A DNA stretch of 64,000 bases, from IMG/VR virus record IMGVR_UViG_3300046615_000208, positions 107,753-171,752 of that record. The stretch is one strand, 5' to 3'. The stretch comes from a virus (Duplodnaviria; Caudoviricetes). Of this stretch, positions 13,580 through 37,377 are shown piece after piece (position 1 is the stretch's first letter; every line of letters begins with the position of its first letter). The notes under the pieces are model-generated. The model had not been told where the DNA came from. It was given only the letters and a program-made list of their open reading frames with translations, and ran no database searches. The translations under genes were made by a program, and so were the position numbers.

Positions 13580-13586
13580 AGAGGGC

Positions 13587-15999: not shown

Positions 16000-16077
16000 T
16001 GCTGCCCAATTACTTTTTAACACTACATATTCTCATAAATGCTATACTGGGTTGACCATCTATCAGAGGAAACCAGC

Positions 16078-16551: not shown

Positions 16552-17258
16552 TGAAGTTTTACAGGTACCTTTCGTGGGTTATTATCGGCTTCACAGTCGT
16601 TGTCGCCCTGTTAGGTACAGTATCTGCGGCTGAGGCGTCGGTAACCCCGACAACGTCCGTTTCACAGGTACTCGTACCCACCCCGGCCCCTACGCCTAAT
16701 ACGGCAAAAGACCCGTCCACTGTGGCACAGCCTAGCTCACCGGGAGTACTGGAGCAATTCGGTCCTCCGGGCGTTATCATTACTACTGTGTTGACAGGTG
16801 TCCTCATGATTATTAAGTCAATCAATGAAGGTAAGAAGATTGACGTAACTACATATAAGGAACGAGCGGCTGATGCAGAAGCCCGTTCCAATGAGGAAAT
16901 CGGTAAGGTCCACAAGAAGCTCGGGGAGCTTGAAAAGAAGCTTGACGAAGTTATTGCAGACCGAGATGAATACAGGGACACACTAGAAGAGCGCAAGGCA
17001 CACTTCACACGGCAAATTCTGGATATGGAACGTCGTCACCAGAGGGAACTCGAAGATATGCACTCTGCTCTAATGGTAGAAGTTCACACCCGTCACAGGC
17101 TCGAAAGAATCTTGGCGGAGAATGGAATAGCGGTACCACAAACACCGCCTCCATATACCCAATCCATGAAGGCAGAGGTCACAGTCCAAGACCGTGTAGA
17201 GGCTACAGCCTCCACAGCCTCCATGAGGGTACTACGAGAATCCGAAGAATCAGAATAA
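16551..17258 (+). CDS. membrane protein with coiled coil, probably lysis-associated
   Basis: Signal/TM segment, P/T linker, second TM, long coiled coil. Confidence 0.7.
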   Translation: MKFYRYLSWVIIGFTVVVALLGTVSAAEASVTPTTSVSQVLVPTPAPTPNTAKDPSTVAQPSSPGVLEQFGPPGVIITTVLTGVLMIIKSINEGKKIDVTTYKERAADAEARSNEEIGKVHKKLGELEKKLDEVIADRDEYRDTLEERKAHFTRQILDMERRHQRELEDMHSALMVEVHTRHRLERILAENGIAVPQTPPPYTQSMKAEVTVQDRVEATASTASMRVLRESEESE

Positions 17259-17277
17259 CATCCCCTAAGGAGTAAAC

Positions 17278-17712
17278 ATGGATGCAGCACTACTTATTTT
17301 CCTAGGCCTTTTGGCCCCGTTCCTCACAGCGGCACTTAACCGTGTAGGCTGGACAGCTAAGACCAAGCACCTCGTTGCGTTTGGTGTGTCCATTGTTCTT
17401 GCAGTGTTCTGGTTGGTAGTTACAGGCGGCTTTGCCGTCTTCGACGTACCAGCTATTATTGCTGCAATGCCTGCAATTTACACCATCTCGCAGGCCGTAT
17501 ACGCATTCTTTGTCAAGAATATCGCTTCAAAACTGGAAGCAGCCACCGACAAGAATGCTGTTGTCATTTCACCGGCTGAGGAACCTGACAAAGTGATCGT
17601 GACATCCAACGACACCATTGAGGTCTCCAACGAAACTGGCGCACCCGCCAACGTTGAGACTTCTGCCCCTGTCAGGGTAGACACCGTTGAAGAGAACGAA
17701 CCACGAGGCTAA
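17278..17712 (+). CDS. putative holin
   Basis: Two to three TM helices with P..TA.L...W..K.K pattern and acidic tail; AAGGAG RBS. Confidence 0.6.
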   Translation: MDAALLIFLGLLAPFLTAALNRVGWTAKTKHLVAFGVSIVLAVFWLVVTGGFAVFDVPAIIAAMPAIYTISQAVYAFFVKNIASKLEAATDKNAVVISPAEEPDKVIVTSNDTIEVSNETGAPANVETSAPVRVDTVEENEPRG

Positions 17713-19127: not shown

Positions 19128-20036
19128 ATGATCACATACAAGGCAAAGACAAGTAACGGAGAGATCATCAAGTCCGCTCTCTCCCCTTTCACCTTCCCAG
19201 CAGGGGAAGCGCACACAAAGCGCGAAGAGCGCCGCGAACTGGAACCCACCGAGATCGCAATCCTCCAGTTCTCTCCCGAATCGATCCACGATGACCTGTT
19301 CCAGCTTGCCATGTGGAGCAATACGGTCTTCAGTGAATCCGGTAAGATCAAGCGTGTTGCAATCATCCCTTACTTCCCCGGTGCACGTGCCGACCGTGGT
19401 ACTCCTTTCGGCGCTGAAGTCTACGTGGAGTTCGTCTACTCCCTGATGCTCGATCAGGTCATCACCTACGACCCACACTCTGAGGTCTACGTTAAGCTTC
19501 TCCAGAATGATCCGGCCCTGACGGTCACTCCCGTCTACCCGCACGAGACTCTGGGGACCATGACTGCACAGATCACTATGCCCAACGTCTATGACGGTGT
19601 CATTGCACCCGACAAGGGTGCAAAGGTGCGTGCAGGCGCTGTGGCTCGTGAACTAAATCTGCCTCTGTACACTGCCACCAAGACTCGTGACTTCGAGACA
19701 GGCAAGCTCAACGGTTTCGGTATGGAGCAGACTCTTCCCAATGATGGTCTTTACCTTATCGTGGACGACATCTGCGACGGTGGTGGTACCTTCGTCGGAC
19801 TGGCTAACCACCTTCAGGAGACCACAGAGAACATCCGACTTGACTTGTACGTCTCTCACGGTGTATTCTCTAAGAGTGCCCTAGAGAACCTCGAAAAGGC
19901 ATTCTCCAAAATCTTCACCACAGACTCCTATGACCCGCATCGGAGCCTGACCACCCGAGTTTCCGAATTCCAAGATGACTCTACGTGTTTCCACCGTATT
20001 GACATCATTCGGCCCCTACTTCAGAAAGTGAACTAA
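19128..20036 (+). CDS. prs: ribose-phosphate pyrophosphokinase-like protein (probable NARP1 ADPR-PP synthetase, Adps)
   Basis: FPAGE, PYFPGARADR, DPHS, APDKGA, IVDDICDGGGTF, VSHG. Confidence 0.9.
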   Translation: MITYKAKTSNGEIIKSALSPFTFPAGEAHTKREERRELEPTEIAILQFSPESIHDDLFQLAMWSNTVFSESGKIKRVAIIPYFPGARADRGTPFGAEVYVEFVYSLMLDQVITYDPHSEVYVKLLQNDPALTVTPVYPHETLGTMTAQITMPNVYDGVIAPDKGAKVRAGAVARELNLPLYTATKTRDFETGKLNGFGMEQTLPNDGLYLIVDDICDGGGTFVGLANHLQETTENIRLDLYVSHGVFSKSALENLEKAFSKIFTTDSYDPHRSLTTRVSEFQDDSTCFHRIDIIRPLLQKVN

Positions 20037-20039: not shown

Positions 20040-21551
20040 ATGTTTCTCCTTAACCCGCTTCTCGCAACCGACTCCTACAAGCTCTCCCACATCTTCATGT
20101 ACCCGGATGGTCTGGAACATGTAGAGTCCAACTACACCAACCGCAAGTCCCGCGTCGAGGGAATCAACCATGTCGTCCAGTTCGGGCTTCAGGCGTGGCT
20201 GAAGGACCTGACCGAGTCCTACGAGCGCTTTTTCGCTGCGGACAAGGACAAGGTCATCAACGAATACAAGGACAATGTGGCCACCTTCGTCTCCCCCGGC
20301 TTCACGCTGGCACACGTCGAGGCCCTGCATGACCTTGGCTACCTCCCGATCCAGTTCTCCGCAGCCCCGGAAGGCTCCCTTGTTCCGATTGGCGTTCCGT
20401 CAATCCTGATCAAGTCCACGCACAAGGACTTCGCATGGCTGGTAAACTACCTCGAATCCGACCTCTCGGCAGGTGTGTGGCACCCGTCCACCGTTGCCAC
20501 CCTTGCGTGGAGCCTTCGTCGCGTCTTCGAGAAGGCCGCACGAGACACTGGCGGAGCCATGGAAGCTGTTGACTTCCAAGTCCACGACTTCTCCTACCGT
20601 GGGCAGGTCAACCGTGAAGCTGCCATGGCCTCCGGTGCCGCACACCTTCTCTCCTTCAAGGGTTCAGACGGTGTTCCGGTTGTGCCTTGGGTTAATTACT
20701 ACTACCCCGGAGAAGACAACGGCGACATCGCGTACTCTGTTCCGGCAACGGAACACTCTGTGATGTGCCTTGGTGGCGAAGAGGACGAACTCGAAACGTT
20801 CCGCCGCCTGCTGAAGCAGTTCCCGACCGGTATCCTCTCCATCGTGTCCGACACGTGGGACTTCTTCAAGGTTCTCACCGAGTACCTTCCGGCACTCAAG
20901 GACGAAATCCTTGCTCGTGACGGCAAGCTCGTCATTCGCCCGGACTCCGGCGATCCCGCAGATATCATTTGCGGTACGGTAGGTATGCGTTTCCCGCGTC
21001 TCTCAAAGGATGCGACAGACTCCGCAAAGGAAGCTAAGGGTGCCATGGAAATCCTTGCAGACCTGTTCGGTACCACGACCAACGAGGCCGGATTTGAAGA
21101 ACTCGACTCCCACATCGGCCTGATTTACGGCGACGGCATGTACAAGGAGCGCATCGAGGACATCAACGCCCGCCTCAAGGCCAAGGGCTTCGTCTCCACC
21201 GTCTGGGTTTCCGGTATCGGCTCCTTTCAGTACCAGATGAACACCCGTGACACCTTCGGCTCGGCTGTCAAGGCTACCTTCGGCATCGTCAACGGAGAAG
21301 GCCGCAACGTCCAGAAGAACCCGAAGACTGACGATGGCACCAAGAAGTCCGCCAAGGGCCGACTGGCTGTCCTGCATCAGGCCAACGGCAACCTCTACCT
21401 CGTACAGGATGCCACGGATGAGCAGATTGCGAACTCCGTCCTCAAGCCCGTATGGGAAGACGGCAAGTTCCTGAAGGAGTACTCCTTCAACGAATCCCGC
21501 GAAAACCTGAAGCGCACCACCGGAATCCTCGAAAGGAATGGCAGCATTTAA
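20040..21551 (+). CDS. nadV: nicotinamide phosphoribosyltransferase-like protein (probable NARP1 Namat)
   Basis: TDSYKLSH, HDFSYRG, SVPATEHS, VSDTWD, IRPDSGDP, IYGDG, KNPKTDDGTKKSAKG. Confidence 0.93.
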   Translation: MFLLNPLLATDSYKLSHIFMYPDGLEHVESNYTNRKSRVEGINHVVQFGLQAWLKDLTESYERFFAADKDKVINEYKDNVATFVSPGFTLAHVEALHDLGYLPIQFSAAPEGSLVPIGVPSILIKSTHKDFAWLVNYLESDLSAGVWHPSTVATLAWSLRRVFEKAARDTGGAMEAVDFQVHDFSYRGQVNREAAMASGAAHLLSFKGSDGVPVVPWVNYYYPGEDNGDIAYSVPATEHSVMCLGGEEDELETFRRLLKQFPTGILSIVSDTWDFFKVLTEYLPALKDEILARDGKLVIRPDSGDPADIICGTVGMRFPRLSKDATDSAKEAKGAMEILADLFGTTTNEAGFEELDSHIGLIYGDGMYKERIEDINARLKAKGFVSTVWVSGIGSFQYQMNTRDTFGSAVKATFGIVNGEGRNVQKNPKTDDGTKKSAKGRLAVLHQANGNLYLVQDATDEQIANSVLKPVWEDGKFLKEYSFNESRENLKRTTGILERNGSI

Positions 21552-23382: not shown

Positions 23383-25041
23383 ATGCCCAATATTTTCCAA
23401 AGAGCTACTGTCGAGGAACCAAATGACAGAAGACAAGCTCTCCCCGCGAATACTCCGAGACCAATCACAGCATCGGCTGTTCGAATCAATCTCAAAGAAA
23501 AGAAAGAAGTCGAAGCTGTTGCCCTTAGGCGACTAGTTGACAAGTGGCAGGAAGAGGCGTGGGACTACTACGACTACATTCCTGAGGTAGCATCCTCAGC
23601 AAATCTTGTTGCCAATGTTCTTTCCAGAATTAACCTTTACGTTGGTTTTGTTTCCGACACATCACAGGCACCCTCCGACATTTCTAAGGTCGAAGGACTG
23701 GACCCCGATCTCGTTGACACAGCCAAAGAGGTACTCTACCTTCTTGAATCTGGAAATGGCGGAACATCTGGTGTCCTCCGAGATGCGGCACTGAACTTCT
23801 TCATTGCGGGCGAGTGCTACTTGGTGCGCGAGCCTGCCCGTTTCTCCAACGGGATGCAGGAGAAGTACCAGATTCGGTCCATCAATGAGATCGTTACAAT
23901 CGAAGCCAACCGTAAGCTCACAGTGGCTATTAAGCCGCGTAGAGACTCAAAGCCTGAAGACTTCATCAAGATTCCTGCAAACGGCGGATACTGTGCACGT
24001 ATGTGGAAGTCTCACCCGCGTTACGGAGATGAAGCGGATTCATCGCTCCGTCCGTTGCTCGAAACCTGTGATTCGTTGCTTCTACTTGAGCGTACCATAA
24101 ACGCGCAGGCAAAGGCAATGCTTCCAGCCGGTATTTTGTTTATTCCGGATGGTCTGTCTAACGGTTACCAGTCTGACGGAGACCTAGAGCCAGAGTTCGA
24201 TGAGAACGGTGACGAGATCGCGCCACTCTCCGACGATGAATCTGAGTCCTTTGAAGAGGCCCTACAGCGTGCGCTCATGTCTCCTTTGACAGATGAAGCC
24301 AACGGTGGTAGTGTTGTACCGTTGATTCTTCGCGGCGCTCCTGAGCTTGGCGAAAAGATCAAGCACATTAACTTGTCCCGTCCGTTCGACCCGTCCCACA
24401 ACAACATGGCTCAGGCTAAGCTTGACCGTATCCTCGGTGGTCTGGATATTCCGAAGGATGTTGCCGCTGGTTTCGCCAGTGTCAAGTACTCCAACGCTAT
24501 CCTCATCGAAGAGCAGTTGTTCAAGGCACACATCGAACCGCTCATCCTGTCTATCTCGGATATGCTTACAACGGCATTTCTACGACAGGCACTGCGTGAG
24601 CAGGGACGCTTTGACGAGAAGGACATCAACAAGGTTGTCGTATGGTATGATCCGTCTGCCATCACAGCTAAGCCTTCTCGCGCAGAGGCAGCTACCACCG
24701 GTTACGAGATCGGTGCAGTGTCTCTGGACGCATGGCGACGTGCAAATGGGTTCTCTGCTACAGATGCACCTACCGAACTTGAGCGTCTACAGCGATTTGG
24801 TATGGAGAAGGGTATGCTCAATGAGGCTACAACCGAAATGGTCATCAACTCTCTCATTCCAGAAGAAATGCAGCAGAAGCTCCGCCAGAGTCAGCTTGCA
24901 AACTCTGACCCAGCCGCTGTAGAATCCCTCGGAAATGCGCTTGGAGATGAAGAAATGCAACCGGTGGAGCCTTCACCAACACCAGCAGCGGATTCCCCTA
25001 CTCCGGTAGAGGCTCCGCCTAACACACTATTGGAGCCATAG
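23383..25041 (+). CDS. portal protein
   Basis: 552 aa; WQEEAWDYYD, GECYL and AGILFIP motifs typical of actinophage portals; first gene of the head module. Confidence 0.85.
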   Translation: MPNIFQRATVEEPNDRRQALPANTPRPITASAVRINLKEKKEVEAVALRRLVDKWQEEAWDYYDYIPEVASSANLVANVLSRINLYVGFVSDTSQAPSDISKVEGLDPDLVDTAKEVLYLLESGNGGTSGVLRDAALNFFIAGECYLVREPARFSNGMQEKYQIRSINEIVTIEANRKLTVAIKPRRDSKPEDFIKIPANGGYCARMWKSHPRYGDEADSSLRPLLETCDSLLLLERTINAQAKAMLPAGILFIPDGLSNGYQSDGDLEPEFDENGDEIAPLSDDESESFEEALQRALMSPLTDEANGGSVVPLILRGAPELGEKIKHINLSRPFDPSHNNMAQAKLDRILGGLDIPKDVAAGFASVKYSNAILIEEQLFKAHIEPLILSISDMLTTAFLRQALREQGRFDEKDINKVVVWYDPSAITAKPSRAEAATTGYEIGAVSLDAWRRANGFSATDAPTELERLQRFGMEKGMLNEATTEMVINSLIPEEMQQKLRQSQLANSDPAAVESLGNALGDEEMQPVEPSPTPAADSPTPVEAPPNTLLEP

Positions 25042-25079: not shown

Positions 25080-28000
25080 ATGGCTTGGGGTAAGAATCAA
25101 AACTGGAAGTGGCAGCTTCGCGATAGCAAGGGCCGCTGGATTGAAATGGGCCGTGGGGTAAAGTGGTACTCCCCGTCATTGGGCCGCGAGGTCTCCGGAA
25201 CAGTCGTAGGGCAGAAGGGTAAGAACGCAATTGTCAATCTTACCTCTGAGCCTGCCAATGCTAAAACCGGTAAGCCACAGCAGGTATCCGTTAAGGGTAG
25301 TGACATTGAGGTCATTCAGAACAAGGCTACCCTGAACCCAACAGCCGACAAGGCCATTAGTGCCACCGATGCGATGCTGAAGCAGGGCCAGCGCACGGCT
25401 GGTCCTAAGGCCTCAGTACCTACTGAGGTAGAGAACGCGCCTGCGCCTGTTGCTAACAAGAAGTACAACGAAGCAGGCCTGACTCCTGATGAGCAGAAGG
25501 CTGTTGACTTCCAAGAGAAGAAGGCAAAGCAGGCGGCAGACAAGGGCGACCTTGACGCTGCTGACCGCTATGAAACTGCCGCTGCCAAGACCCGTAAGAT
25601 CGGTGAAGACCGCATCAAGAACGGTGAAGGCGACACTCCTGCCGAGGATACACCCGCCGCTGGAGAAACACAAGGGCCAGCTACGTCTACCAAGGCACCT
25701 ACACGTAACGCCGACATTGAGCGCGACCTCGGTCTTCTGGAGCAGGAAGCAGAAGACATCAACAACCTCGCGGACGAAGATGAGAAGGCTTCTGCCCTCG
25801 AAGCTGCACAGTACGACCTAGTCAACGACGCTGGCGACGATGTCACCATGCGCCTAGCTGAGGGTGACGACGAAGGCAGCTATGATGTAGCTGTGGAGGA
25901 CGCAGACGGCAAGGAACTAGGTCGCGTACCTATGTCAGAGAGCGCTGGCGAGCGTATCGACACGGCTAAGGCTGTGCGAGAGCTTGCCAACGGTCGTACC
26001 CCTGCCAAGGCCACCATCAGCGACGAACCCGTAGACGAGTCTCCAGAGGCTTCGGAAGCTCCCAAGGCCAACGTACCGCTGGCCGAACTTGAGAAGCAGG
26101 CCAAGGCTGATGGGGACACTGTCCTCTACCACGGTGGTCTACCTGAGGGCACGACCCTCGATGGCATCGACCTCAACCGCAATGGAACCCAGCAGAACAA
26201 GCGTGGGCAGTCCTTCGGAGGTTTCTATCTCACTGACGAGTCCTCCAAGAGTTGGTCTGACAAATACGCCATGGAGCGTAACGGTGTCATGCACGGCTTC
26301 GCTATCGACAAGAACGCCCGAATCGATGACCGTGGAAAAGAGCAGATCGACCGCATCTCCGCAGAGGACCGTGCCAAAGCTGCCGAGACCTCCGATATCA
26401 TCAAGGGTAGGGACCTTCTCGGGCGTACCCAGTATGTCATCCTCAACAAGGATGTCATCAAGGGTGTTGGTGAAACCAACCTCAAGACGGACAAGGCCCC
26501 TGAGGCAACTCCTGAGGTCCCTGAGGTGGCACCAGAGGCCCCTGATGCGGCTCCTGCCGACTCCGGACTGCCCGAGTTTGATCCTGTCACCATTGCTCTG
26601 CCTAGGGACGCGTTCAAGACAGCCGACAAGATTGCAGTCGGTGACCGTCTTTTGACCACTGCCCATGCTAATAACGGCAAGGAAATGCCTGTCAGCAGGA
26701 CCGATACCAATATTGCCAACGGCGAGACGGTTGACCTGACCGGTAAATCTGCTACAGTTACTGGTGTGCAGAAGATCATGGGACAGAACAAGACCTCGCA
26801 GGGTAAGGTTGTCGGCAGCAGGGTTGCCCTACAGTACTCCGATGGCCGAACCGAATCTATGGACCTCTACGCGAACCGTGGCGGTAGTAACTCTAAGGGT
26901 GGTGTCTTCATTGACTCCCCTGAGTTCCGTGCTGCCCACATCGATAAGGCACCTGAAGAAGCGCCAAAGGATGAAGCACCGGTCGATGGTGGCAATGCTG
27001 GAAGCCCTGTTGCCAAGCCTGAACCTGTTGTGGCAGAGAGTGTTGAAGATAAGCTCAAGGCTGCTGGAGTTGCCCGCACCGAACCTGTCGCCCTTCCGGG
27101 TGAGAAGTTCGCTCCGACGCGCCAGCAGCAGGACATCATCGACTCGGTCATGGCTGGGAAGAACACCGCAGTACAGGCTCTCGCCGGTTCCGGTAAGACC
27201 TCCACACTGGAAGCACTTGCCAAGCGTATTCAGGCACAGTACCCGGACAAGAAGATTGCGTACATCGCATTCAACCGTTCGGTTAAGCTTGAAGCTGAAG
27301 GCCGCATGCCGTCCAACGTTGAGTCCAAGACTCAGCACGGTCTGGCATATGGTTGGGCACCGAAGTGGATGAAGGACCGCTCCAATGATACCGGCTCGCT
27401 TCGTCGTGGTGATGATGTTGCAGGGTTCTTGGGCATCCGCGAGACCATCCGTCCAAAGGATGGAGAGCCTATGTCTGTCAAGGAACAGGCACTCGCCGCC
27501 ATGCGTACGGTTGACACCTTCGCAAACAGCGCTGAGGATGTTCCGGATGCCTCCCACATGCCTGAGAAGATCAAGGCTATGGGTCCTGAGGTTGAAGCTG
27601 CCGTTCTCGCGTCTGCTGCTAAGATTTGGGAGGACCTCCAGAAGCCTGATGGTAAGATGCGCTTCTCCCTTGACCACATGCGTAAGCAGTGGGCGCTGAC
27701 CAAGCCCGACCTGTCCAAGGCCGGTACGGGTCTGTCCCGTCCTGCTGATATCATCTTCATGGATGAGGCTCAGGATACACCTAAGGTCATGGCTGCGCTC
27801 ATGGACCACCAGACAGCCCAGAAGGTTGTCGTTGGTGACTCCAACCAGAACATCTACTCGTCCTTTACTGGGTCCATCGACTACATGTCGCAGGTCCAGA
27901 AGGACATCGAACTGCCGCTGACCAAATCATGGCGTTTCGGACCGGCTGTTGCTGACATCGGTAACCGTTTCCTCCAGCTTGCAGAGTCGCCTCACCGTGT

Positions 28001-31000
28001 AGAAGGCGGCGGCGAGTCCTCTATTGTGGAAGGTATGCAAGAGCCTGACGCTATCCTCGTACGCTCCAACGCAGGTATGCTCGGAGAAATCCTCGGAGAA
28101 CTTGAAAAGGGCCGCACGGTTGGTGTACCATCGGGTACTAAGAAGGACATGATGTCTCTTGTGGACTCAGCCGCTTTCCTAAAGGGACAGGGTGACGCTC
28201 CTTCCAAGATGCACGATGACCTAGCAGCTTACCGCTCTTGGGATGAAGTTGTTGCTGAGGCTGAAGCGGGTAACGCGACCATGGCTAAGGTTGCTAACAT
28301 GGTCAACACCCACGGTATCGGTGGACTCCGCAACATCCTGAATCAGGTCGTTGAAAAGGGCGGCGATGGTCTGGCTGGTATGGTACTCAAGGGTACCTCC
28401 AACCCTAACATCTCTGTTGCCGATGGTAAGACTTTCGGTAACAACAACGCTGATTACCTGAAGCAGGCTGGGTTCAAGTTCGGTGAGATTCCGGGCGCTG
28501 AGCCGATGAAGTCCGGTAAGAATAAGGGCAAGCCGCGTAAGGGTTGGATCGCCACTGGTGATGAAGACGCACGTCGCGCTATGTTCAAGAAGGCACAAGA
28601 GCTTGCATCCGGTGAAGCTGTTGACGTTACGATTTCGACTGCCCACAAGTCCAAGGGTCTTGAGTGGGATAAGGTCAAGATTGGCGATGACTTCCGTGGT
28701 CCGAAGCTCAATGAGGAAACCGGCGAAACAGAGATGCCATCTCCGGAAGAGTTGCGTGTAGCTTACGTAGCTGTTACTCGTGCGGCTAAGGAACTCGATC
28801 CGGGTTCTCTCGGTTATGTCTTTGATCATACCGATGAAAATGGTGGAATCCCTAAGCCTGCTGAAACTGGCGAACAGGATAACGCTAAGGAAGACGAGCG
28901 TCCGCTTCCGGGAACTCCCGACGATCCGGAAGCACCTTCTGATGAGGATGTCAATGAGCCTGCTCCTGAAGCTGGGGAGCCTGCTCCTGTAGAGGAACCG
29001 ACTCCATCACCCGAGGCAGAGGAACCGACTCCAGCACCTGAAGGTGGAGCACCTGAGGGTGGGGCACCTGTAGCCGTAGAGGAACCAGTCCCTGACGACG
29101 AGCAGGAGCCAGAACCAGAACCTGATGAGGTTGTAGATGCAGGCGAGCCTTTGCCTGACCCTGCACCTTTGCCGGTGAAGGAAGAGGAACCAGCGCCTAC
29201 GCCGGAACCTGAGCCGACTCCTGCGCCTGTGGATGAAGAGACACCGGGACCTGCTCCTGCACCATCTCCGGAGCCGACTCCAGCGCCTACGCCGGAACCG
29301 GAGCCTGCCCCAGAGCCGACTCCTGCACCTGTGGACGGAGAAACACCGGAACCAGAGCCAGCAGGGCCTACAGGGGGCCGTACAGAGCTTCCTACACCTG
29401 ACCCACGCCCTGTGCACCCGGTCAAGCTGAAGGCCGCACAGTACCCTGACGGTACTGTTGTACGTAGCGCTCGTAGTGGCGAAGCGTACGAGAAGACCAA
29501 TGGGCAGTGGCACGTACAGGGTGATGAGGCTACTACTGTCGATCCTATGGACTGGGAGACCCCGTTCGTATACGATATGCCGAAGCAGGACGCTGATAGC
29601 TTTGACGCCTTCGACGGAATTGACTCTGCCGAGATTGGTGATATCATCATTACTCGTAAGGGAACACAGGCCTCTGTTGTGGGCAAGCGTGACGGCAAGC
29701 TTATTGTTGCCGCACACAACCAGAGTGAAGAGCAGCGTCGTCTTCGTCCAGCACTTGTCGCGATTGATCCGGTAACGGTCAAGGGTATCAACAAGTTCGC
29801 TGGCGCTCCTGCCGCACAAGGACCTACTCGTCCGCCGAGGACTCGTACACCGTTCTCTGGCAACCGTGGTAACTCCAATGTTACTATCAAGGACGTTGGC
29901 GGAAACGAGATCAAGATTGGCGACACAGTCCGTACCGACATGGGTACGGGTAAGGTTGTCCGTGTTCGTCCTTCTGATGGTCCTAGTGGTTCTGCATTCA
30001 TTGAGTTCCCAGACGGCACCATCAAGAGCTTCCGTTCAAACAAGATGCGTAACACTGCATTTGCTGAGGAACAGGCTACTGGCGGTGACGATCCATCCAA
30101 GATGGAAATCGGCTCCATGGGCGAGGCTGGAGACGGTCGAGCATTCATGGTCGGTAAGGGCAACAAGCCTATCTTCAAGGGAGACGTAGTCGAACTTGCA
30201 GACGGTACCACAGGTAAGATTTCCGGTTTTGCGAAGGGCGTTCAGTCTGTCAACATCCGTGTTGAAGGACGTGCGAGCGACCTCCGCAAGAAGGCTTCGG
30301 TTGTGGATGTTCCCGGATACAACGCTCCTGCTACTGATGCTGCCACTCCTGCTCCTGAAGAGTCGGGATCGGGCACAGCTTCTGATGGAGAAACAGCAGT
30401 CAGCGGTTTCGTGGTTGGGAGCAACGCAGCGGCTCGTGCATTCGTCCGAGAGATTGAGGACTCGGGGTGGACTGTTGACCAATTCGCTAAAACAGCGGAA
30501 AAGTCACTTGGGAACATGGGCCGTATTGACGGTAATGACCCACTGACCGCTATCTTGTCTGATGATGTTACGGACAAGCAGAGGGCCAGAGCCTCTAGTC
30601 TGCTCCGTATGATCGCAGGTTCGCACAAGATCATGGCGGACTACAACCCGGCTACCACGCCGGAAGAGAAAAAACGCCTTGAAGACCTAGACACTGCATT
30701 GTGGTTCTTCCACGAGAAGATGGAGAGAGTATGGAAGTCTCAACTCAAGAAGCTCAGGACCACAGAGGAAGCAACCCCGCTCTCCAAAGAGCAGTTGGCA
30801 TCTTACGATGGTAAGGCAGATTTCTCTGGCTTCAACTACGACACTTCCCGCTTCAACCCCCTTTCCCCTGAGGGCCGTAATACGAATGATCCGGAAGATA
30901 TTCTTCCCGGTACTGACATTCGTCCGGGTGTTCGTGTAGCTGACAAGAACGGCAACGTTCTTGGTATCGTCCTCGGGTCGGCTGCGGCTCAGTACCAAGG

Positions 31001-32600
31001 AAGTGACAAGGTTTCTGTTCTAAAGGCGGACTCCAATATTGTCAAGTCTCGCGGTGTTCAGTCTCAGGATTACGAATGGAAGGACTTGGTAGCAGTTGCT
31101 CCGAAGTGGGACACATCTACCGACTTGGACTTCTCTGAAGAGGCCACACCACAGCGTGTGGCTAACAAGTTGGAAGCGTCCTACCCCGGTGTAGCCTTTG
31201 GGTTCGAAGGACTTGACATTGAGACTTCTAGGGCGTATGCTCGAAGTGTATCAAAGATGTTCAACAAGTACCCAATGCTTCAGCAGGCACTTGCAAGCGT
31301 TTCCTCCGGTAAGAGTAAAGATGAAGGCTACCAGCCACCGTCAGGGTCTAAGCCCGTGTCAGACGACTGGTACGCCTACGCATCATTCCCCGGTGGAACT
31401 CTTGACACAACGTACAATGGTGTTAGGATGGTATTCAACTCCGGTGGACCTAACATTCGTGGGTACAACGGAACCGTCAGGTCGGTAAAGAATGATATCG
31501 ACGCTAAGTTCCACCACCCGTCACCGGAGGGTCAAGAAATTGACTCGATTGTGATCCACGAGTTCGGACATGTTCTGGACTTCATGACCGGTAAGTTGGC
31601 TGAGGAAGACTTGTTCGATGTTTTTGCGACGGTCTGGGGTTCGGATGGGGAGACCAATCCGAACGTTGGTAAGTACCTACAGAATAAGGGAGAAATTTCG
31701 GGTTACTCGCAGATTGACGGTAAGATCAACATTACTGAATTGGTTGCAGAAGCATTCGAAGATGTGGAAATGAATGGAGTGAAAGCTACAGACCTCTCCA
31801 AGCAGATTCACGCAGAACTAATTAGAAGACTAGCTGAGCCAGATGCACTAGCCCCAAGGGCTAATGTAGCTGCCCCTGCGGTTTTCGCTCTGGCGGATGA
31901 AATGCAAGCGTCTTTTTCCAAAGGGGGGTTCACCCTCAAGGGTGAACTCCCCGGAGGAAACTCAGGTGCGTCGATTATGCTTGGAACTCTGTCGGATGGA
32001 AAGGAAGTTGTCATGAAGACTCATGGTGGAGGGAATGCGGATAAGGAGCACCTTGCCTCCCGTGTCCTGAACACTCTCGGAGTTGACAACATCGGCACGG
32101 TGAAGGTTGATGACACGACGACCATTACCAACTTTGTTCACGGAAGGTCCGGTCTTGAGTGGATGAATGAGTCTGAGTTCAATACCCCCGTTGAGATGCG
32201 GGACGCTATGACTAAGCTGAAGAACTCGCGTGAAGTCGGCTTGTTTGATTTCATTACCTCCAATCAGGATAGGCACGCCGGGAACTGGCTGCTTTCCGAG
32301 GACGGAACTGTTGCCCCTATTGACCATGGAGGGACATACTACAAGGCGTGGAGTCCACAGAAGGATGGGCGCTACCTGTTTGCTGAAGGCAAGTTTGCAC
32401 AAAGCACTCTAGGTGTTAATATGGATAAAGAAACCTATATCACTTCGGTGGACGCATCGGTCTCTTGGACACGTGCCGAGCTTGAAGGAATCCGGGCGAA
32501 GATCGAGGGCCTTGCCCCCGACTACGCGGATCACCCCGAGTGGCATAAATTCATGCTGGATCGGCTAGACTATCTAATGGAGGGAACCCCATGGCAGTAA
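25080..32600 (+). CDS. 2506-aa polyvalent head-module protein: ART-like, UvrD-like SF1 helicase, SH3/KOW repeats, zincin, PI3/4-kinase-like
   Basis: LYHG...GFYLT; AGSGKT, DEAQD, GDSNQ, STAHKSKGLE, YVAVTRA; HEFGH...ELVAEAF; VMK, NQDRHAGN, IDHG. Confidence 0.85.
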   Translation: MAWGKNQNWKWQLRDSKGRWIEMGRGVKWYSPSLGREVSGTVVGQKGKNAIVNLTSEPANAKTGKPQQVSVKGSDIEVIQNKATLNPTADKAISATDAMLKQGQRTAGPKASVPTEVENAPAPVANKKYNEAGLTPDEQKAVDFQEKKAKQAADKGDLDAADRYETAAAKTRKIGEDRIKNGEGDTPAEDTPAAGETQGPATSTKAPTRNADIERDLGLLEQEAEDINNLADEDEKASALEAAQYDLVNDAGDDVTMRLAEGDDEGSYDVAVEDADGKELGRVPMSESAGERIDTAKAVRELANGRTPAKATISDEPVDESPEASEAPKANVPLAELEKQAKADGDTVLYHGGLPEGTTLDGIDLNRNGTQQNKRGQSFGGFYLTDESSKSWSDKYAMERNGVMHGFAIDKNARIDDRGKEQIDRISAEDRAKAAETSDIIKGRDLLGRTQYVILNKDVIKGVGETNLKTDKAPEATPEVPEVAPEAPDAAPADSGLPEFDPVTIALPRDAFKTADKIAVGDRLLTTAHANNGKEMPVSRTDTNIANGETVDLTGKSATVTGVQKIMGQNKTSQGKVVGSRVALQYSDGRTESMDLYANRGGSNSKGGVFIDSPEFRAAHIDKAPEEAPKDEAPVDGGNAGSPVAKPEPVVAESVEDKLKAAGVARTEPVALPGEKFAPTRQQQDIIDSVMAGKNTAVQALAGSGKTSTLEALAKRIQAQYPDKKIAYIAFNRSVKLEAEGRMPSNVESKTQHGLAYGWAPKWMKDRSNDTGSLRRGDDVAGFLGIRETIRPKDGEPMSVKEQALAAMRTVDTFANSAEDVPDASHMPEKIKAMGPEVEAAVLASAAKIWEDLQKPDGKMRFSLDHMRKQWALTKPDLSKAGTGLSRPADIIFMDEAQDTPKVMAALMDHQTAQKVVVGDSNQNIYSSFTGSIDYMSQVQKDIELPLTKSWRFGPAVADIGNRFLQLAESPHRVEGGGESSIVEGMQEPDAILVRSNAGMLGEILGELEKGRTVGVPSGTKKDMMSLVDSAAFLKGQGDAPSKMHDDLAAYRSWDEVVAEAEAGNATMAKVANMVNTHGIGGLRNILNQVVEKGGDGLAGMVLKGTSNPNISVADGKTFGNNNADYLKQAGFKFGEIPGAEPMKSGKNKGKPRKGWIATGDEDARRAMFKKAQELASGEAVDVTISTAHKSKGLEWDKVKIGDDFRGPKLNEETGETEMPSPEELRVAYVAVTRAAKELDPGSLGYVFDHTDENGGIPKPAETGEQDNAKEDERPLPGTPDDPEAPSDEDVNEPAPEAGEPAPVEEPTPSPEAEEPTPAPEGGAPEGGAPVAVEEPVPDDEQEPEPEPDEVVDAGEPLPDPAPLPVKEEEPAPTPEPEPTPAPVDEETPGPAPAPSPEPTPAPTPEPEPAPEPTPAPVDGETPEPEPAGPTGGRTELPTPDPRPVHPVKLKAAQYPDGTVVRSARSGEAYEKTNGQWHVQGDEATTVDPMDWETPFVYDMPKQDADSFDAFDGIDSAEIGDIIITRKGTQASVVGKRDGKLIVAAHNQSEEQRRLRPALVAIDPVTVKGINKFAGAPAAQGPTRPPRTRTPFSGNRGNSNVTIKDVGGNEIKIGDTVRTDMGTGKVVRVRPSDGPSGSAFIEFPDGTIKSFRSNKMRNTAFAEEQATGGDDPSKMEIGSMGEAGDGRAFMVGKGNKPIFKGDVVELADGTTGKISGFAKGVQSVNIRVEGRASDLRKKASVVDVPGYNAPATDAATPAPEESGSGTASDGETAVSGFVVGSNAAARAFVREIEDSGWTVDQFAKTAEKSLGNMGRIDGNDPLTAILSDDVTDKQRARASSLLRMIAGSHKIMADYNPATTPEEKKRLEDLDTALWFFHEKMERVWKSQLKKLRTTEEATPLSKEQLASYDGKADFSGFNYDTSRFNPLSPEGRNTNDPEDILPGTDIRPGVRVADKNGNVLGIVLGSAAAQYQGSDKVSVLKADSNIVKSRGVQSQDYEWKDLVAVAPKWDTSTDLDFSEEATPQRVANKLEASYPGVAFGFEGLDIETSRAYARSVSKMFNKYPMLQQALASVSSGKSKDEGYQPPSGSKPVSDDWYAYASFPGGTLDTTYNGVRMVFNSGGPNIRGYNGTVRSVKNDIDAKFHHPSPEGQEIDSIVIHEFGHVLDFMTGKLAEEDLFDVFATVWGSDGETNPNVGKYLQNKGEISGYSQIDGKINITELVAEAFEDVEMNGVKATDLSKQIHAELIRRLAEPDALAPRANVAAPAVFALADEMQASFSKGGFTLKGELPGGNSGASIMLGTLSDGKEVVMKTHGGGNADKEHLASRVLNTLGVDNIGTVKVDDTTTITNFVHGRSGLEWMNESEFNTPVEMRDAMTKLKNSREVGLFDFITSNQDRHAGNWLLSEDGTVAPIDHGGTYYKAWSPQKDGRYLFAEGKFAQSTLGVNMDKETYITSVDASVSWTRAELEGIRAKIEGLAPDYADHPEWHKFMLDRLDYLMEGTPWQ
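29191..29350 (+). repeat. imperfect tandem duplication in the Pro/Glu linker
   Basis: CAGCGCCTACGCCGGAACC at 29191 and 29281, each followed by GAGCCGACTCCTGCnCCTGTGGA. Confidence 0.75.
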
Positions 32601-32803
32601 TAAAGTTCTACACCGCAAAGGACGACAGGCTCCTAGGCACCGTGACGGCGACTGAGAGCACGCTCACAGGAGACACCAACGGGGTCCGCGAGATGGTGGA
32701 CGCGTGGGGGAAGTCCGCCGCCGAGTTCATCGCCGCCTATGCGGACTGGGGCAACGGCTATCTCTACTCACGAGAAGAAGTTGACGGATCGGATGAATCG
32801 TGA
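32591..32803 (+). CDS. 70-aa protein, candidate inhibitor/partner of the kinase domain
   Basis: GGAGG RBS; overlaps the giant gene by 10 nt. Confidence 0.7.
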   Translation: MAVIKFYTAKDDRLLGTVTATESTLTGDTNGVREMVDAWGKSAAEFIAAYADWGNGYLYSREEVDGSDES

Positions 32804-33351: not shown

Positions 33352-33499
33352 CGGCTAACACGGAAGACCAGCCATTATGGTATACTAGTACAAACACACT
33401 AACTTTGTACTTTATCCTGTGGCTGGTCTTCTCTGTGTTGCCACCAATAACGGAAAAATATTATGCTTGACAATAACTTTGTATCCGAAAGGCAAAAAA

Positions 33500-35857
33500 T
33501 TGGCTACTAGAGCAAAGAACAGCGTCGAAAACCAGCCAAGGGACCGATTTGGACGCTGGGTCGCGCAGGGCGCAAACATCAAATGGCGTGCCGATGGCCG
33601 AAACAAGATCGGTATCGTAAAGAGCGCTCTCGACGGGATTGCCAAGGTAGAAGAAAGAAACCCAGACGGTACATCATCTGGGAATACCTATGACGTTCCA
33701 CTTAAGGAAGTACAGGTTCTCGCCTCCAAGGCTCGCATTCCAGTTGCTGGAGAAGAGTTTACCGGAAAGTCAGACAATCTGCAAGATAACCTTGACGATC
33801 CTGCCTTCCAAGATGAACTAAAGAAAAAGGGTCGCAAGTATCTCACCATGCCTTCAGGCTACGCGCTTGAGGTCAAGGACGAGGATGACACCAACCCTCT
33901 CACCTACCAGCTATACGCACCAAATGGTCAGAGCCTAGGTATCTTCTCCAAGGAAGCACTGGCGGTTCTTCAGGAAATGATCGATATGGCAGAGAAGCCG
34001 GAAGATTCGGCTCCGGAGGATGATCAGTCAACTGAAGAGACCGTGGCCCCTGAGCAGGCAGCTTCTCTACAGACCCGTGAAGTACGGAACTTCCGCGTCC
34101 CGCCTAAGGTCAAGGAAGAGATTTCCGCCGTACTGGAGGCTGGAGCCACAAGCTTTTCGGCTGAGGACTTGACAAGGGCTAAGGCCCTCGCGTACGATGA
34201 CACTGTGTCGCTCTCCGACATCAAGTGGATCGGGGCTTACTTCTCTGAAATTGAGGCAGCAGAACGGCTGCGTGGCGGCTACAATGGCCGTAAATGGGCC
34301 TCTAAGGTCCTAGCGCCTGTCGAGAGCGACCCCTTTGCCCCCCAGTCGTCGGGCATCGAGTACGGGCGTTATGACTTTGATGACGCGGTGTTTGATTACT
34401 TCGCCATCAGCGGTGAGGAAGGCTCGCTTGATTCCTTCGCCCTTATTGCTGTAGACTATGAGACAGGTGCGGTGTACGTCTGGAGGGATGAAGGCTTCGA
34501 GTTTGAAGAAGACATCGACATCTCCACGTTTGACGCACCAAATATCACACCTATCGATGTTGATACAGCACTGGAGCTAGCCAAGTACATCGACACCAAT
34601 GTCGATGTTGACGGATACGATATCCGCGATTCCGATGAAGAAGAGCGAAATCTATTCCTCATGGCCGAGGCAGAGCTAGATGATGATGAAATGTACCGTG
34701 TGTACACAATTATCGCTGATGCTACAGGGTACACCCCACAGGAGCGTTCTGTCAACGCACAGCGCCAGAAGCGTGGACCGGGTGGTAAGTTCGGCGGCGG
34801 ACAGGCTACGGGTGCTGCCCCGGCAGGCCAGCTAACGCCTCAGTTCCCTAAGGCCAAGCTTTCCTCCGAGCTTCCTCTTGTTGCAGACATCTCTGCACGA
34901 ATCGAAGAGTGGATCGCATCTGCACCAGAAGCCACAGAAGGCGCTCTAACGGCCTCTGCTGAGTTTGCTGGGGAAACACCCGCACCTGTTGCAGGAGAGG
35001 CCCCAGCAGCCGACGCAGCCCCTGTAGGAGAGGCACCAGCCGAAGCGGCACCAGCCGCTGAAGGGTCAGCCCTCTACTTTGCCATAGTGGACGAGGTTGA
35101 CAAGACTGCTGTGCTGAACGCGTTCGCTATCCTGAAGCAGGACAACGGGCCAAAGGCATACCTACGCGAAAACGCAAAATGGGCAGAGTCTCCGGATGTC
35201 CTTGCAGACATTCAAGGAACAACTCCGCCGCCTGTTGTTGAATTGGCCGTCCCGGAGCCAGCTAAGTCAGTCCTTTCGCAGATCGACCAGCACGACTCTA
35301 CACAGACACAGCAGACTACAGACAGCGAGAACCAGCCAGCCGTAGTAACTGCCAGTGCCTTTGACGATGCGGGTGTTCGAGGGTACGCGCTACCTAATGG
35401 CAGCTACCCGATCTTCGATGCAACCGATCTGGCTGTCTGTGTGGCAGAGTTCTCCGCCAAGGGCGATCCGGAAAACTTCGAAGTAAAGCGCCATATCCGT
35501 AAGAGGGCGTTTGCGCTCAACCGCATGGACCTTGTCCCGGCTGAATGGCGTACCCCAACTACAGTCGAACGCGGCATCGAACTAGAGTCCGCTCCAAATC
35601 TCTACGGAGAATTTGGGGAAGTCATCCTAGCTGCTGGCGGACATCGAGGACACCGTGGCGGCAACGCTGCGGCACTGAAGCGTTACTGGACCGTTGGTCG
35701 AGGCGCAGCAAAGATTCGCTGGGGCACCAAGGGAGACCTTACACGTGCACACCGACACCTAGCAAAATACGTTGGCTCAGAACGCGCTTGGGGCTTGGTA
35801 CAGAACTACCACCAGTCCCTGTTCGGAGTTTCAAACTACAAGAGAGATCACGGGTAA
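33500..35857 (+). CDS. modular minor head protein
   Basis: TTG start after GAAAGG; QPRDRFGRW, ALPNGSYPI and LKRYW...KIRWGTKGD modules. Confidence 0.75.
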   Translation: MATRAKNSVENQPRDRFGRWVAQGANIKWRADGRNKIGIVKSALDGIAKVEERNPDGTSSGNTYDVPLKEVQVLASKARIPVAGEEFTGKSDNLQDNLDDPAFQDELKKKGRKYLTMPSGYALEVKDEDDTNPLTYQLYAPNGQSLGIFSKEALAVLQEMIDMAEKPEDSAPEDDQSTEETVAPEQAASLQTREVRNFRVPPKVKEEISAVLEAGATSFSAEDLTRAKALAYDDTVSLSDIKWIGAYFSEIEAAERLRGGYNGRKWASKVLAPVESDPFAPQSSGIEYGRYDFDDAVFDYFAISGEEGSLDSFALIAVDYETGAVYVWRDEGFEFEEDIDISTFDAPNITPIDVDTALELAKYIDTNVDVDGYDIRDSDEEERNLFLMAEAELDDDEMYRVYTIIADATGYTPQERSVNAQRQKRGPGGKFGGGQATGAAPAGQLTPQFPKAKLSSELPLVADISARIEEWIASAPEATEGALTASAEFAGETPAPVAGEAPAADAAPVGEAPAEAAPAAEGSALYFAIVDEVDKTAVLNAFAILKQDNGPKAYLRENAKWAESPDVLADIQGTTPPPVVELAVPEPAKSVLSQIDQHDSTQTQQTTDSENQPAVVTASAFDDAGVRGYALPNGSYPIFDATDLAVCVAEFSAKGDPENFEVKRHIRKRAFALNRMDLVPAEWRTPTTVERGIELESAPNLYGEFGEVILAAGGHRGHRGGNAAALKRYWTVGRGAAKIRWGTKGDLTRAHRHLAKYVGSERAWGLVQNYHQSLFGVSNYKRDHG

Positions 35858-35862: not shown

Positions 35863-37377
35863 ATGAAGATTCCACCAAAGTTTGATGAAGACATCATCAA
35901 GAACTTCAACCTCATCGACCCTGTCATTGAAACTGCACTAGTAGCAGCAGCGACATCGGTTCGTGAACTACAAGAAACTATACCAGAGACGGTAGAGGAT
36001 GTCCAGTCATCCGGAGCTAAATTCTTCATCCCTCTCGCGGTACCCGAAGGTGTATCGTCCGGTGACGAACGCATCTTCGATGAAAACTCTATCACCATCC
36101 GCGACCTACCGCTACCCCTACGCTGGCAAATCATTTCTGATGAGGGCCACAAGGGGTCTGTGGTGGTCGGACGCATTGACTCCATCGAAAGAGTTGAGGG
36201 CGGTCTTGGAAATGTGCGAGGCGTATTCGATGTCGGCGCATATGGCCGAGAATGTGAACGTCTTGTGCGGGGTAAGTTTATCCGTGGTGTATCGGTAGAT
36301 GTTGACAAGTTCGAAGCGTCTCAGGCTCCTGAAGAAGGCGAAGAGCGTCAATTTGCAGACAAGGACGAAATTAAGAATCAAAAGATTCGAATTAAGTCCG
36401 CAAGGCTAATGGGCATAACAGTTGTCCCAATGCCTGCCTTCCAAGAGGCAATTATTATGATCGAAGAAGAGCCTTCACTATCGAATGGAGATGATGTTGT
36501 GGAAGACGGCATCTACACAGAACAGCTAGAGGGTGAAGACATGGAGTACGCAGCAATTCTTGCTTCCGCTGCCCCAGTAGTACCACCGCGTAGCTGGTTC
36601 AATAACCCCAAGCTAAACGAACCTACACCCCTGAAGGTCACAGATGAGGGGCAGGTCTTCGGACACATTGCCCTCTGGAACGCCACCCACATCGGTATGC
36701 CGAGTGCAACGAAACCTCCGCACTCTTCATCCAAGTACGCCTATTTCCGGACCGGAGAACTGCGTACAGACGATGGCGACGTACAGGTAGGCCAGCTAAC
36801 ACTCGTGGGTGGACACGCAGATTACAATGCGAGCGCATTTGCCGCTGTCAAGCACTACGATGACACCAAGAGCGCTGTAGTGGACGTTGTGGCTGGCGAA
36901 GACCAGTTCGGCATCTTCGTAGCTGGCGCTTTGCGTCCGGGAGTCTCACCTGAGCAGGTACGTGTCCTGAGGGCGTCATCGTTCTCGGGCGACTGGCGAC
37001 CAATCAACGGCAGGCTTGAGCTTGTTGCTGTCTGTGCCGTCAACGTTCCGGGTTTCATGACCCCACGTGCAATTCTTGCTTCCGCAGGCGGAAAGGTTAC
37101 AGCGCTTATTGCGGCTGGAGCATCCCCACTGGCTGACCTAAAGGAAAACCAGAGGTTCCGCGAAATGGAAGAGCGACTTTCGCGCATGGAGTTTACCATC
37201 AACTCCAAGCGAGCAGCCGAGCTTCTGTCCCGCTTCTCTGATCTTGAGGCGCAGGAAGAGGCTAGCCTGTCCGCGAGGGCAGCAGCCGCGTTCAGCAGAT
37301 TTGAGCCGGAAATCCCATCTGAGGAATCCGAGCTATCTACTAAAATTGAACAACTAATGAGCCGATTTAACGATTAA
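35863..37377 (+). CDS. capsid maturation protease
   Basis: SGDER, LPLPL, GH.GSVVVGRI, RGVSVD, VPMPAF and C-terminal SGDWR..LEL..VNVPGF; precedes the capsid gene. Confidence 0.8.
   Translation: MKIPPKFDEDIIKNFNLIDPVIETALVAAATSVRELQETIPETVEDVQSSGAKFFIPLAVPEGVSSGDERIFDENSITIRDLPLPLRWQIISDEGHKGSVVVGRIDSIERVEGGLGNVRGVFDVGAYGRECERLVRGKFIRGVSVDVDKFEASQAPEEGEERQFADKDEIKNQKIRIKSARLMGITVVPMPAFQEAIIMIEEEPSLSNGDDVVEDGIYTEQLEGEDMEYAAILASAAPVVPPRSWFNNPKLNEPTPLKVTDEGQVFGHIALWNATHIGMPSATKPPHSSSKYAYFRTGELRTDDGDVQVGQLTLVGGHADYNASAFAAVKHYDDTKSAVVDVVAGEDQFGIFVAGALRPGVSPEQVRVLRASSFSGDWRPINGRLELVAVCAVNVPGFMTPRAILASAGGKVTALIAAGASPLADLKENQRFREMEERLSRMEFTINSKRAAELLSRFSDLEAQEEASLSARAAAAFSRFEPEIPSEESELSTKIEQLMSRFND

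Follow-up and report, generated by a model that had tools for sequence, protein, structure and literature searches.

Phage polyvalent proteins, in which ADP-ribosyltransferase (ART), zincin, helicase and kinase domains are found in various combinations and for which injection into the host has been predicted, were described by Iyer et al. (2017, PMC5512222). The idea is still largely computational and very few of its examples have been tested. ARTs packaged in phage heads (PMC9503650) and MuF toxins accompanied by immunity genes (Jamet et al. 2017, PMC5576092) have also been described. The present analysis concerns a stretch of 64,000 nucleotides of viral DNA (Caudoviricetes; positions 107,753 to 171,752 of IMG/VR record IMGVR_UViG_3300046615_000208), called here the window, which makes up the final 64 kb of a 171,752-bp record with a CheckV completeness of 99%. 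Directly 3' of the portal gene of this virus lies a giant gene encoding 2506 aa, and its end overlaps a gene of 70 aa. The giant is probably, though far from certainly, a polyvalent effector of the head module that carries a C-terminal kinase together with the cognate inhibitor of that kinase.

The giant is read from one uninterrupted frame with an ATG start and an AAGGAG ribosome-binding site, 38 nt after the end of the portal gene. The overlap between its stop and the 70-aa frame amounts to 10 nt (ATGGCAGTAA), and the GGAGG site of the small gene sits within the final codons of the giant. An original prediction, drawn from the nucleotide sequence, had placed after the portal an ORF with an ART-like domain (~26120-26470), an SF1/UvrD helicase with intact motifs (~27110-28800), a Pro/Glu linker, several SH3/KOW-like repeats (29420-30320), a HExxH...E zincin (~31150-31830) and a PI3/4-kinase/HipA-like domain (~31900-32600), ending in a toxin-immunity-like tail with an overlapping 70-aa gene. 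Most of this layout was recovered: the coordinates agree, the linker is confirmed by its composition, the helicase by its profile matches and full set of motifs, the zincin by motifs, fold and phrog_7153, and the ART block as a fold, while the tail is now backed by strict co-occurrence and by a modelled complex that held up against controls. The repeats fared worse and are treated below.

The last domain of the giant (aa 2263-2506) is, as judged from its model and motifs, a PI3/4-kinase-like atypical kinase with all catalytic motifs. LPGGNSGA (the Gly-rich loop), VVMK2313, DRHAGN2397-2402 and IDHG2414-2417 do not vary among the six sequences known, the only ones found among billions. Searches for stand-alone or distant relatives, conducted with single sequences and with profiles, returned three short metagenomic proteins only, and the gene of one of these (P0010) begins at a contig edge. 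The PF00454 profile covers the catalytic loop only and gives 27.4 bits (cutoff 27.1) when the domain is scanned alone and 23.6 bits in the whole protein; the precomputed Pfam of a relative, P0012, lists the same family as weak. The region aa 1900-2506 was folded from an 8-row alignment with a mean pLDDT of 63 (the zincin part in the 80s, the kinase part 50-78), and VIA-align divides the model into a KOW-like barrel, a zincin and an atypical kinase. The best Foldseek matches of the kinase are VPS34 or PI3K-gamma catalytic domains throughout (E from 1.7e-4), and its VIA-align neighbours are the Legionella lipid kinase MavQ (Z 5.8 over 183 aa), Fam20C (5.6), PI4KII-alpha (5.5) and actin-fragmin kinase (5.5). 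HipA_2 was indicated by one atlas lead; HipA is not listed among the VIA-align neighbours, and no sequence homology to HipA, HipT or HipS was detectable. The PI3/4-kinase part of the original assignment is retained by motifs and fold, but homology to HipA found no backing in sequence.

The 70-aa gene travels with the kinase. The four loci that carry the kinase (the window, L003, L004 and the P0010 contig) all have it, overlapping by the same 10 nt, and the four kinase-less ones (Racecar, P0016, P0156 and Atuin) all lack it; for the latter a 147-165-aa gene is given as the next one after the giant. The identity of the small protein to its orthologues is 79% (L003) and 61% (L004), versus 50% and 42% for the C-terminal region of the giant. 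Searches of Pfam, PHROGs and PDB sequences with the 70-aa protein gave nothing usable, and a search of viral contigs for loci encoding it found none. When the kinase and the small protein were modelled together, an ipSAE of 0.71 was obtained in three runs versus 0.00 for the best of three controls, a score which, to its disadvantage, is the model's own confidence and was reached with shallow alignments (6 and 3 rows). The score passes the mark of the tool, which 58 of 80 solved complexes and 2 of 110 mismatched pairs attained in calibration. The runs share at least 74% of contacts with a partner pLDDT of at least 83, and recall of a memorized structure is unlikely because no solved complex of these families is known. 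The confident contacts on the kinase side include H2399-A-G-N2402 of the catalytic loop, I2414-D2415 (DHG) and V2311, which precedes the lysine by two residues; those of the partner include the invariant F6, G16, N30, V32, E34, D37, W39 and N55-G-Y-L58. The 70-aa protein is thus predicted to sit on the catalytic loop of the kinase and is a candidate inhibitor or immunity protein.

Co-occurrence and predicted binding are silent on what the binding does, and the small protein could instead activate the kinase as a subunit, be its substrate, or act as its chaperone or as an adaptor for packaging, with the kinase serving assembly, for example through phosphorylation of head proteins. Tyr57, located in the conserved GNGYLYS loop, lies at the interface near the catalytic loop and is a possible phospho-acceptor. 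Such a role is considered unlikely, for an occluding inhibitor would be expected to touch the parts contacted here, namely the catalytic loop, the strand beside the ATP-binding lysine and the aspartate of DHG, and HipS neutralises the HipT kinase through direct binding (PMC10627512). Furthermore, a variable C-terminal enzyme with a co-varying, overlapping small gene immediately 3' was found here, which is how a toxin-immunity pair is recognised and is the layout of polymorphic toxins and MuF toxin-immunity genes (PMC5576092). A separate observation comes from Atuin (L002), whose giant (8001-17342) is devoid of zincin and kinase and ends in a different region of ~250 aa. The small gene behind it, gp72 (104 aa, 17344-17658), differs as well and has a weak RMF-like match (E 0.006); this region and gp72 may form a second effector and partner cassette of the same logic.

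The swapping of modules is seen best among the relatives. The nearest deposited genomes are those of the Arthrobacter globiformis phages Racecar, Mimi, Talia1610 and Atuin (192-194 kb), in which the post-portal genes are annotated solely as 'DNA helicase'. Two of these regions were inspected and hold giants of 2709 aa (Racecar gp78) and 3113 aa (Atuin gp71), and the metagenomic giants P0012, P0016, P0155 and P0156 (2775-3557 aa) have the same synteny. As mapped by local BLASTP, the N-terminal module and the helicase are constant across the giants, the helicase being the best conserved. The other domains come and go: the ART-PolyVal block is found in Atuin, P0012-P0016 and P0155, the zincin region in Racecar, P0016, P0156, P0012 and P0155, and the kinase in P0012 and P0155 only, apart from the short metagenomic proteins. 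An extra, classical R-S-E ART (PF03496) is carried by Atuin, P0012 and P0156 and is missing from the giant of the window. The ART block shows 86% DNA identity to Atuin, and the remainder of the gene is far more diverged. Invariant domains had been named with the original prediction as a ground against it; the relatives instead differ in domain content, and this variation favours a role in conflict with the host.

The ART block (aa 345-470) is, on its modelled structure, a divergent ART-PolyVal-type ADP-ribosyltransferase fold of the H-Y-E structural class. It has no direct match in Pfam, PHROGs or PDB sequences, and PF18760 (ART-PolyVal) gave no direct match to aa 335-480 even at E up to 10. 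An exhaustive HMMER search over 1.84 billion cluster representatives yielded 142 relatives: 65 belong to proteins that are 1000 aa or longer, 42 to proteins that reach 2000 aa or beyond (up to 5192 aa), and 41 stand alone in proteins of up to 260 aa. Among 69 aligned family members 13 reach PF18760 on their own (best E 4.3e-6), five reach DUF3990 and one reaches Exotox-A_cataly; an atlas lead to ART-PolyVal scored 0.92, with the family present on 20% of cluster members. The AF2 model built from the family alignment has a pLDDT of 93, and its top 50 Foldseek matches (E from 2.3e-3, probability up to 1.0) are exclusively ARTs of the H-Y-E class such as ExoA, cholix toxin, PARP/PARP2 and tankyrases. 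VIA-align places it next to diphtheria toxin (Z 7.9, 119 aa, rmsd 4.1), cholix (7.7), ExoA (7.4) and ParT (7.0). H351 and G381-F-Y383 are invariant across the 69 sequences, and the predicted third catalytic position, where the strand aa 450-454 begins, is occupied by E or Q without exception (33 E, 36 Q), being Q451 in this giant and every close relative. Two other VIA-align neighbours of the ART model are a chain of the solved pre-ejectosome of cyanophage A4 (9k3a_B, Z 6.8) and an anti-CRISPR protein (6kyf_A, Z 6.3); by structural comparison they are precedents for phage ART-fold proteins that act at or before entry.

The Gln at this site and the pre-ejectosome neighbour, along with the long acidic and Pro/Glu low-complexity stretches of the giant, would suit a mainly structural protein of the inner-body or ejection type, which would owe its importance to bulk and linkers and carry the enzyme-like domains as decayed passengers. 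This explanation is very improbable: the catalytic motifs of helicase, zincin and kinase are all intact and invariant among relatives, and a position that is strictly E or Q, beside invariant H, Y and G-F-Y, speaks for a constrained site and not for decay.

The zincin (aa 2019-2256) is, in the model, a lethal-factor-like zincin composed of the HExxH helix and a downstream Glu-bearing helix. Its motifs HEFGH (2160-2164) and ELVAEAF (2220) are conserved in five sequences, and VIA-align compares it with the protease domain of anthrax lethal factor (Z 8.2, 171 aa) and with the Pro-Pro endopeptidases PPEP-3 (6.4) and PPEP-2 (6.2). A link to minor capsid proteins is given by this domain: the BFVD neighbours of the C-terminal model include minor capsid proteins of the MuF-like type as well as usual fusion partners of MuF, and Mycobacterium phage Rope gp12 combines a MuF domain (aa 167-275; PF04233 at 24.5 bits, under the cutoff of 29.6 bits) with a C-terminal zincin (aa 715-846) in which the motifs of the giant's zincin recur one by one (BLASTP 2e-9). 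In Racecar, P0016 and P0156 the giants terminate in the zincin exactly as Rope gp12 does. A MuF identity of the zincin region itself was considered and rejected, as MuF and zincin are separate in Rope gp12 and PF04233 is absent from the genome. In Rope (L009) the gp12 gene (1859-4429) is followed by a 74-aa gene (4426-4650) that overlaps its stop by 4 nt, and ~30 mycobacteriophages of cluster-A type have a related zincin-like 'hypothetical protein' near the left end (E ~1e-5).

A connection with the head is also suggested by the N-terminal module (aa 10-90), whose consensus is QLRDxxGRW-x3-G-x2-[VI]-[KR]-[WF] ... KAxL and which ends in the conserved K-A-x-L directly before divergent linkers. 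It heads all giants as well as the ~800-aa head protein, both in the window and in those relatives that were aligned (L001-L005 orthologues); the second copy of the window lies at 33530-33790, within the ~812-aa protein. The core motif occurs twice in the six frames of the window, and the profile matches the same two genes genome-wide (172 kb). Against PDB the best match of the profile was the Spt5 KOW region, at a marginal E of 0.002. As two different head-operon proteins carry one N-terminal module, a common docking or loading step is suggested by their sequences, and the module is put forward as a candidate tag for capsid loading or portal docking.

The motif [LIV][TVLI]A[SA][AG] may be the cleavage site of the maturation protease, judging by its sequence distribution: it occurs three times in the ~812-aa protein versus 0.17 expected and four times in the protease versus 0.08. 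It is seen as well at aa 28 of the portal and aa 67 of the 165-aa protein. The giant was examined by means of this motif as a substrate of the maturation protease and was rejected for want of enrichment.

The core of the giant is a UvrD/FBH1-like SF1 helicase. In Pfam, UvrD-helicase reaches 42 bits (cutoff 23) and UvrD_C 36.4 bits (cutoff 25.6), with AAA_19 also above its cutoff, and the motifs GSGKT703, DEAQD895, GDSNQNI919, TAHKSKGLE1187 and VAVTRA1230 (Walker A, II, III, V and VI) are intact. The nearest solved relative is human FBH1 (E 5.7e-28, PDB search). As this is the best-conserved part of the giant, and 'DNA helicase' the only label of the orthologues in GenBank, the protein could be an intracellular, non-virion enzyme of replication, repair or anti-defence that is merely placed in the head operon, with the helicase working on replicating phage DNA and the other domains acting late in the producing cell. 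We regard this as rather improbable. The giant lies between portal and protease, on the same strand, here and in every relative examined; its N-terminal module is shared only with another protein of the head module; elsewhere its zincin family terminates minor capsid proteins of the MuF-like type; and interchangeable effector modules are a typical trait of polyvalent proteins that are injected (PMC5512222).

Several results weigh against a packaged effector. The putative protease site is not enriched in the giant (one occurrence versus 0.36 expected), and Racecar does not conserve the single site. PF04233 (Phage_Mu_F), with E allowed up to 10, matched neither the giant nor the ~812-aa protein nor any other part of the genome, and MPTase-PolyVal (PF18818) had no match in the whole genome at the same limit. 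Both the missing enrichment and the undetectable MuF domain would also suit the intracellular enzyme described above. The kinase model, with its pLDDT of ~50-78, has Z-scores of 5-6 which are middling by VIA-align's own scale. Because of the Gln at the third catalytic position the transferase activity of the ART block is uncertain, and with Gln451 in place of Glu the classical activity may be weak or different. Finally, since no virion proteome of this Arthrobacter phage group was found in the literature searched, packaging and injection of the giant are inferred from gene position, the shared N-terminal module and the MuF-linked zincin. The original prediction of a capsid-packaged toolkit is upheld by the mosaic domains as far as a polyvalent conflict protein in the head module is concerned, but it is not aided by the protease-like motif, for which the giant shows no enrichment.

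If the reading as a polyvalent head-module effector is correct, the giant, a product of the late head operon, would consist of a core (the N-terminal KOW-like module, the UvrD/FBH1-like helicase and a small beta-rich unit) onto which effector modules are swapped, namely the ART-PolyVal-type domain, the lethal-factor-like zincin and the C-terminal PI3/4-kinase-like kinase. The kinase would have been acquired together with the translationally coupled 70-aa protein, which would cover the catalytic cleft and keep the kinase silent in the producing cell. The N-terminal module would load the giant and the ~812-aa head protein into the procapsid, and the giant would then be delivered into the next host along with the DNA. 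There the helicase might translocate along the incoming genome and strip off or outrun host proteins, the zincin might cleave the chain of the giant or host targets, and the ART and kinase might modify host components. A more specific version is tentative and rather doubtful: a capsid-delivered kinase of a tiny new family, silenced by the 70-aa protein until injection, would phosphorylate a host target at DNA entry while the UvrD/FBH1-type translocase clears the incoming genome. The target would possibly be a membrane phosphoinositide of the actinobacterial host, which is proposed because MavQ and PI4KII-alpha are structural neighbours of the kinase.

The remaining parts of the giant are less telling. 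The block without family match (aa 497-617) is common to P0012 and P0156 only, and a match of aa 527-589 to the N-terminal part of P22 tailspike (E 0.026, 13 bits) was treated as noise. Several SH3/KOW repeats were sought at aa 1447-1750, where the original prediction had seen them, but the iterative HMM resulted in one unit of ~40 aa, and the units picked out by eye were as alike as control segments, with pairwise z-scores no better than controls. This unit (aa 1608-1647) is found in every giant compared, twice in some, and the best shuffled score was 3.9 bits. A KOW-like barrel is supported by fold at aa 1943-2007 only, outside the range originally proposed, where VIA-align gives NusG KOW (Z 6.0, rmsd 2.5, 53-54 aa) and several Spt5 KOW domains. 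Searches of aa 1-130, 1460-1900 and 1880-2130 against Pfam, PHROG and PDB sequences gave nothing usable. A helical element of ~50 aa at 25461-25619 (aa 128-180), which begins with [NE]-x-G-L-T-x-[DE]-E and ends with K/R-G-[EQ]-x-R, recurs between domains: it is present once here and repeated in P0004, P0005, P0155 and P0156, and by eye it occurs several times in Racecar and Atuin. In its sequence pattern it resembles a modular spacer or junction element.

The features of the locus are listed in Table 1. The 70-aa gene is followed by a 165-aa gene, the ~812-aa gene and the capsid maturation protease. The true start of the ~812-aa protein is probably downstream of the annotated GTG at 33419. Its C-terminus (aa 747-804, RYWTVGRGAAKIRWGTKGDL...) matches phrog_6439 (7.5e-16) and also part of phrog_21406, a profile that covers the protease too. 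A terminator scan of the + strand from portal to protease gave sites at chance level, none convincing.

Table 1. Features of the giant gene, its 70-aa partner and the surrounding head module in the window (positions are those of the 64,000-nt stretch)
Feature	Position	Strand	Basis or remark
Macro domain gene (PF01661)	15453-15905		upstream of giant
Pribosyltran gene (PRS-like)	19128-20036		upstream of giant, adjoins NAPRTase/NAMPT_N gene
NAPRTase/NAMPT_N gene (NAMPT-like)	20040-21551		upstream of giant, adjoins Pribosyltran gene
Portal protein gene	23383..25041	+	phrog_776, E 6e-80
Giant polyvalent protein gene, 2506 aa (P0001)	25080..32600	+	open frame and AAGGAG site; syntenic giants of 2709-3557 aa in relatives
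N-terminal module, aa 10-90, KOW-like; candidate capsid/portal-targeting module	25107..25349	+	alignment with ~800-aa head protein, profile
ART-PolyVal-related ADP-ribosyltransferase-fold domain (modelled), aa 345-470; H351, Y383, Q451	26112..26489	+	HMMER relatives, AF2 model
Domain without family match, aa 497-617	26568..26930	+	BLASTP 3e-27 and 3e-32 (P0012 and P0156)
UvrD/FBH1-like SF1 helicase, aa 665-1250	27072..28829	+	phrog_1967 4.6e-78, Pfam, PDB FBH1
Pro/Glu-rich linker, aa 1255-1445	28842..29414	+	31% Pro, 20% Glu
~40-aa beta-rich unit, aa 1608-1647, inside beta-rich region 29418-30329	29901..30020	+	HMM match 8e-19
KOW/SH3-like beta-barrel, aa 1943-2007, N-terminal to zincin	30906..31100	+	VIA-align
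Zincin metallopeptidase domain (modelled), aa 2019-2256	31134..31847	+	phrog_7153 3e-6, VIA-align, BLASTP to Rope gp12
PI3/4-kinase-like atypical kinase domain (modelled), aa 2263-2506; K2313, D2397-R-H-x-x-N2402, D2415-H-G	31866..32600	+	PF00454, Foldseek, VIA-align, motifs
70-aa partner gene (P0002), candidate kinase inhibitor/immunity protein	32591..32803	+	10-nt overlap with giant's stop, GGAGG site, orthologues, complex model
~812-aa head-module protein with same N-terminal module as giant	33419..35857	+	alignment/profile matches
Capsid maturation protease	35863..37377	+	phrog_18402, phrog_859; Racecar and Atuin orthologues annotated protease

The Pribosyltran and NAPRTase/NAMPT_N pair, which Racecar, Atuin and the P0016 contig have likewise conserved 5' of the portal, is consistent with the Adps-Namat pathway described as NARP1 (10.1101/2024.02.11.579819; PMC12774641). 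In the original prediction these genes and the macrodomain were to supply NAD+ and erase ADP-ribose for the giant. The genes are real but the functional tie is unsupported: the NARP1-type pair and the Macro gene, although conserved neighbours, are connected with the giant solely via common NAD+/ADP-ribose chemistry.

The family is of interest because its cultured relatives (Racecar, Mimi, Talia1610 and Atuin) make these inferences testable; they offer a model for a field with few examined proteins. The relatives differ in ART, zincin, kinase and R-S-E ART and so form a natural domain-swap series, and the kinase with its 70-aa partner is a clean two-gene cassette for tests of toxicity and neutralisation. 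If packaging is true, a UvrD-type helicase and a PI3/4K-like kinase would be delivered with the phage DNA, the N-terminal module would become a candidate for the tag by which cargo is loaded into the capsid, and the target of the kinase would show a host process important in the first seconds of infection. The capsid-delivered kinase, if real, would be the first injected kinase-inhibitor cassette and the whole the first helicase-centred family of injected effectors in actinophages.

Among the systems already described, the phage-type polyvalent proteins (PMC5512222) are the closest. Like them, the giant lies among virion genes, is mosaic between relatives and combines at least two unrelated catalytic domains, features by which such proteins are recognised. 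Unlike them, its core is a UvrD/FBH1-like SF1 helicase and not the SWI2/SNF2-methylase dyad described there, where UvrD-like helicases were reported only for proteins of actinomycete plasmids. Its kinase is PI3/4K-like in contrast to the truncated Ser/Thr/Tyr type, its ART family is H-Y-[E/Q] in contrast to the H-Y-D of the prototype, and the families PF18760 and PF18818 have no direct match to it. The phage P1 protein DarB (summarised in PMC5512222) is likewise very large and contains a helicase, and capsid association and a role with incoming DNA are thought for it; however, DarB has a methyltransferase and an SF2-type helicase, whereas the giant has an SF1 UvrD-like helicase and no methylase, and no sequence relationship between the two was found.

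With MuF toxins and their immunity genes (PMC5576092) the giant shares the post-portal position among head genes, the variable C-terminal enzyme and the co-varying small gene, and with the MuF-like minor capsid protein Rope gp12 a zincin of the same family. It differs from MuF proteins in having no detectable PF04233 and in being 3-10 times larger, and, unlike the MuF toxin-immunity case, the phage gave no temperate sign in the data examined, to which no dedicated test was applied. T4 Alt (PMC5512222, PMC9503650), packaged in the head and injected, is also a phage ART that is produced late alongside head proteins and for which action at entry is proposed, but it is a single-domain effector of the R-S-E type, whereas the ART block of the giant belongs to the H-Y-E class. 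The kinase and its partner recall HipBST (PMC10627512, PMC9325769), in which a kinase of the PI3/4K-like class is bound directly by a small protein, neutralising there and a candidate for this role here. In contrast to HipA and HipT, the kinase of the giant is the C-terminal domain of a 2506-aa protein and not a free toxin, and there is no HipB-like DNA-binding partner.

In the literature searched no phage polyvalent family built on a UvrD/FBH1-like helicase was described, nor a PI3/4K-like kinase in a polyvalent protein, nor a kinase with its cognate small binding protein as a swappable C-terminal cassette, nor an N-terminal module common to two head-operon proteins, and the Arthrobacter-phage giants were not mentioned. 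The polyvalent concept, the head-packaged ARTs and the MuF pairs were thus already known, and what this locus adds to them is the type of the helicase core, the type of the kinase, the kinase-partner cassette and the shared N-terminal module.

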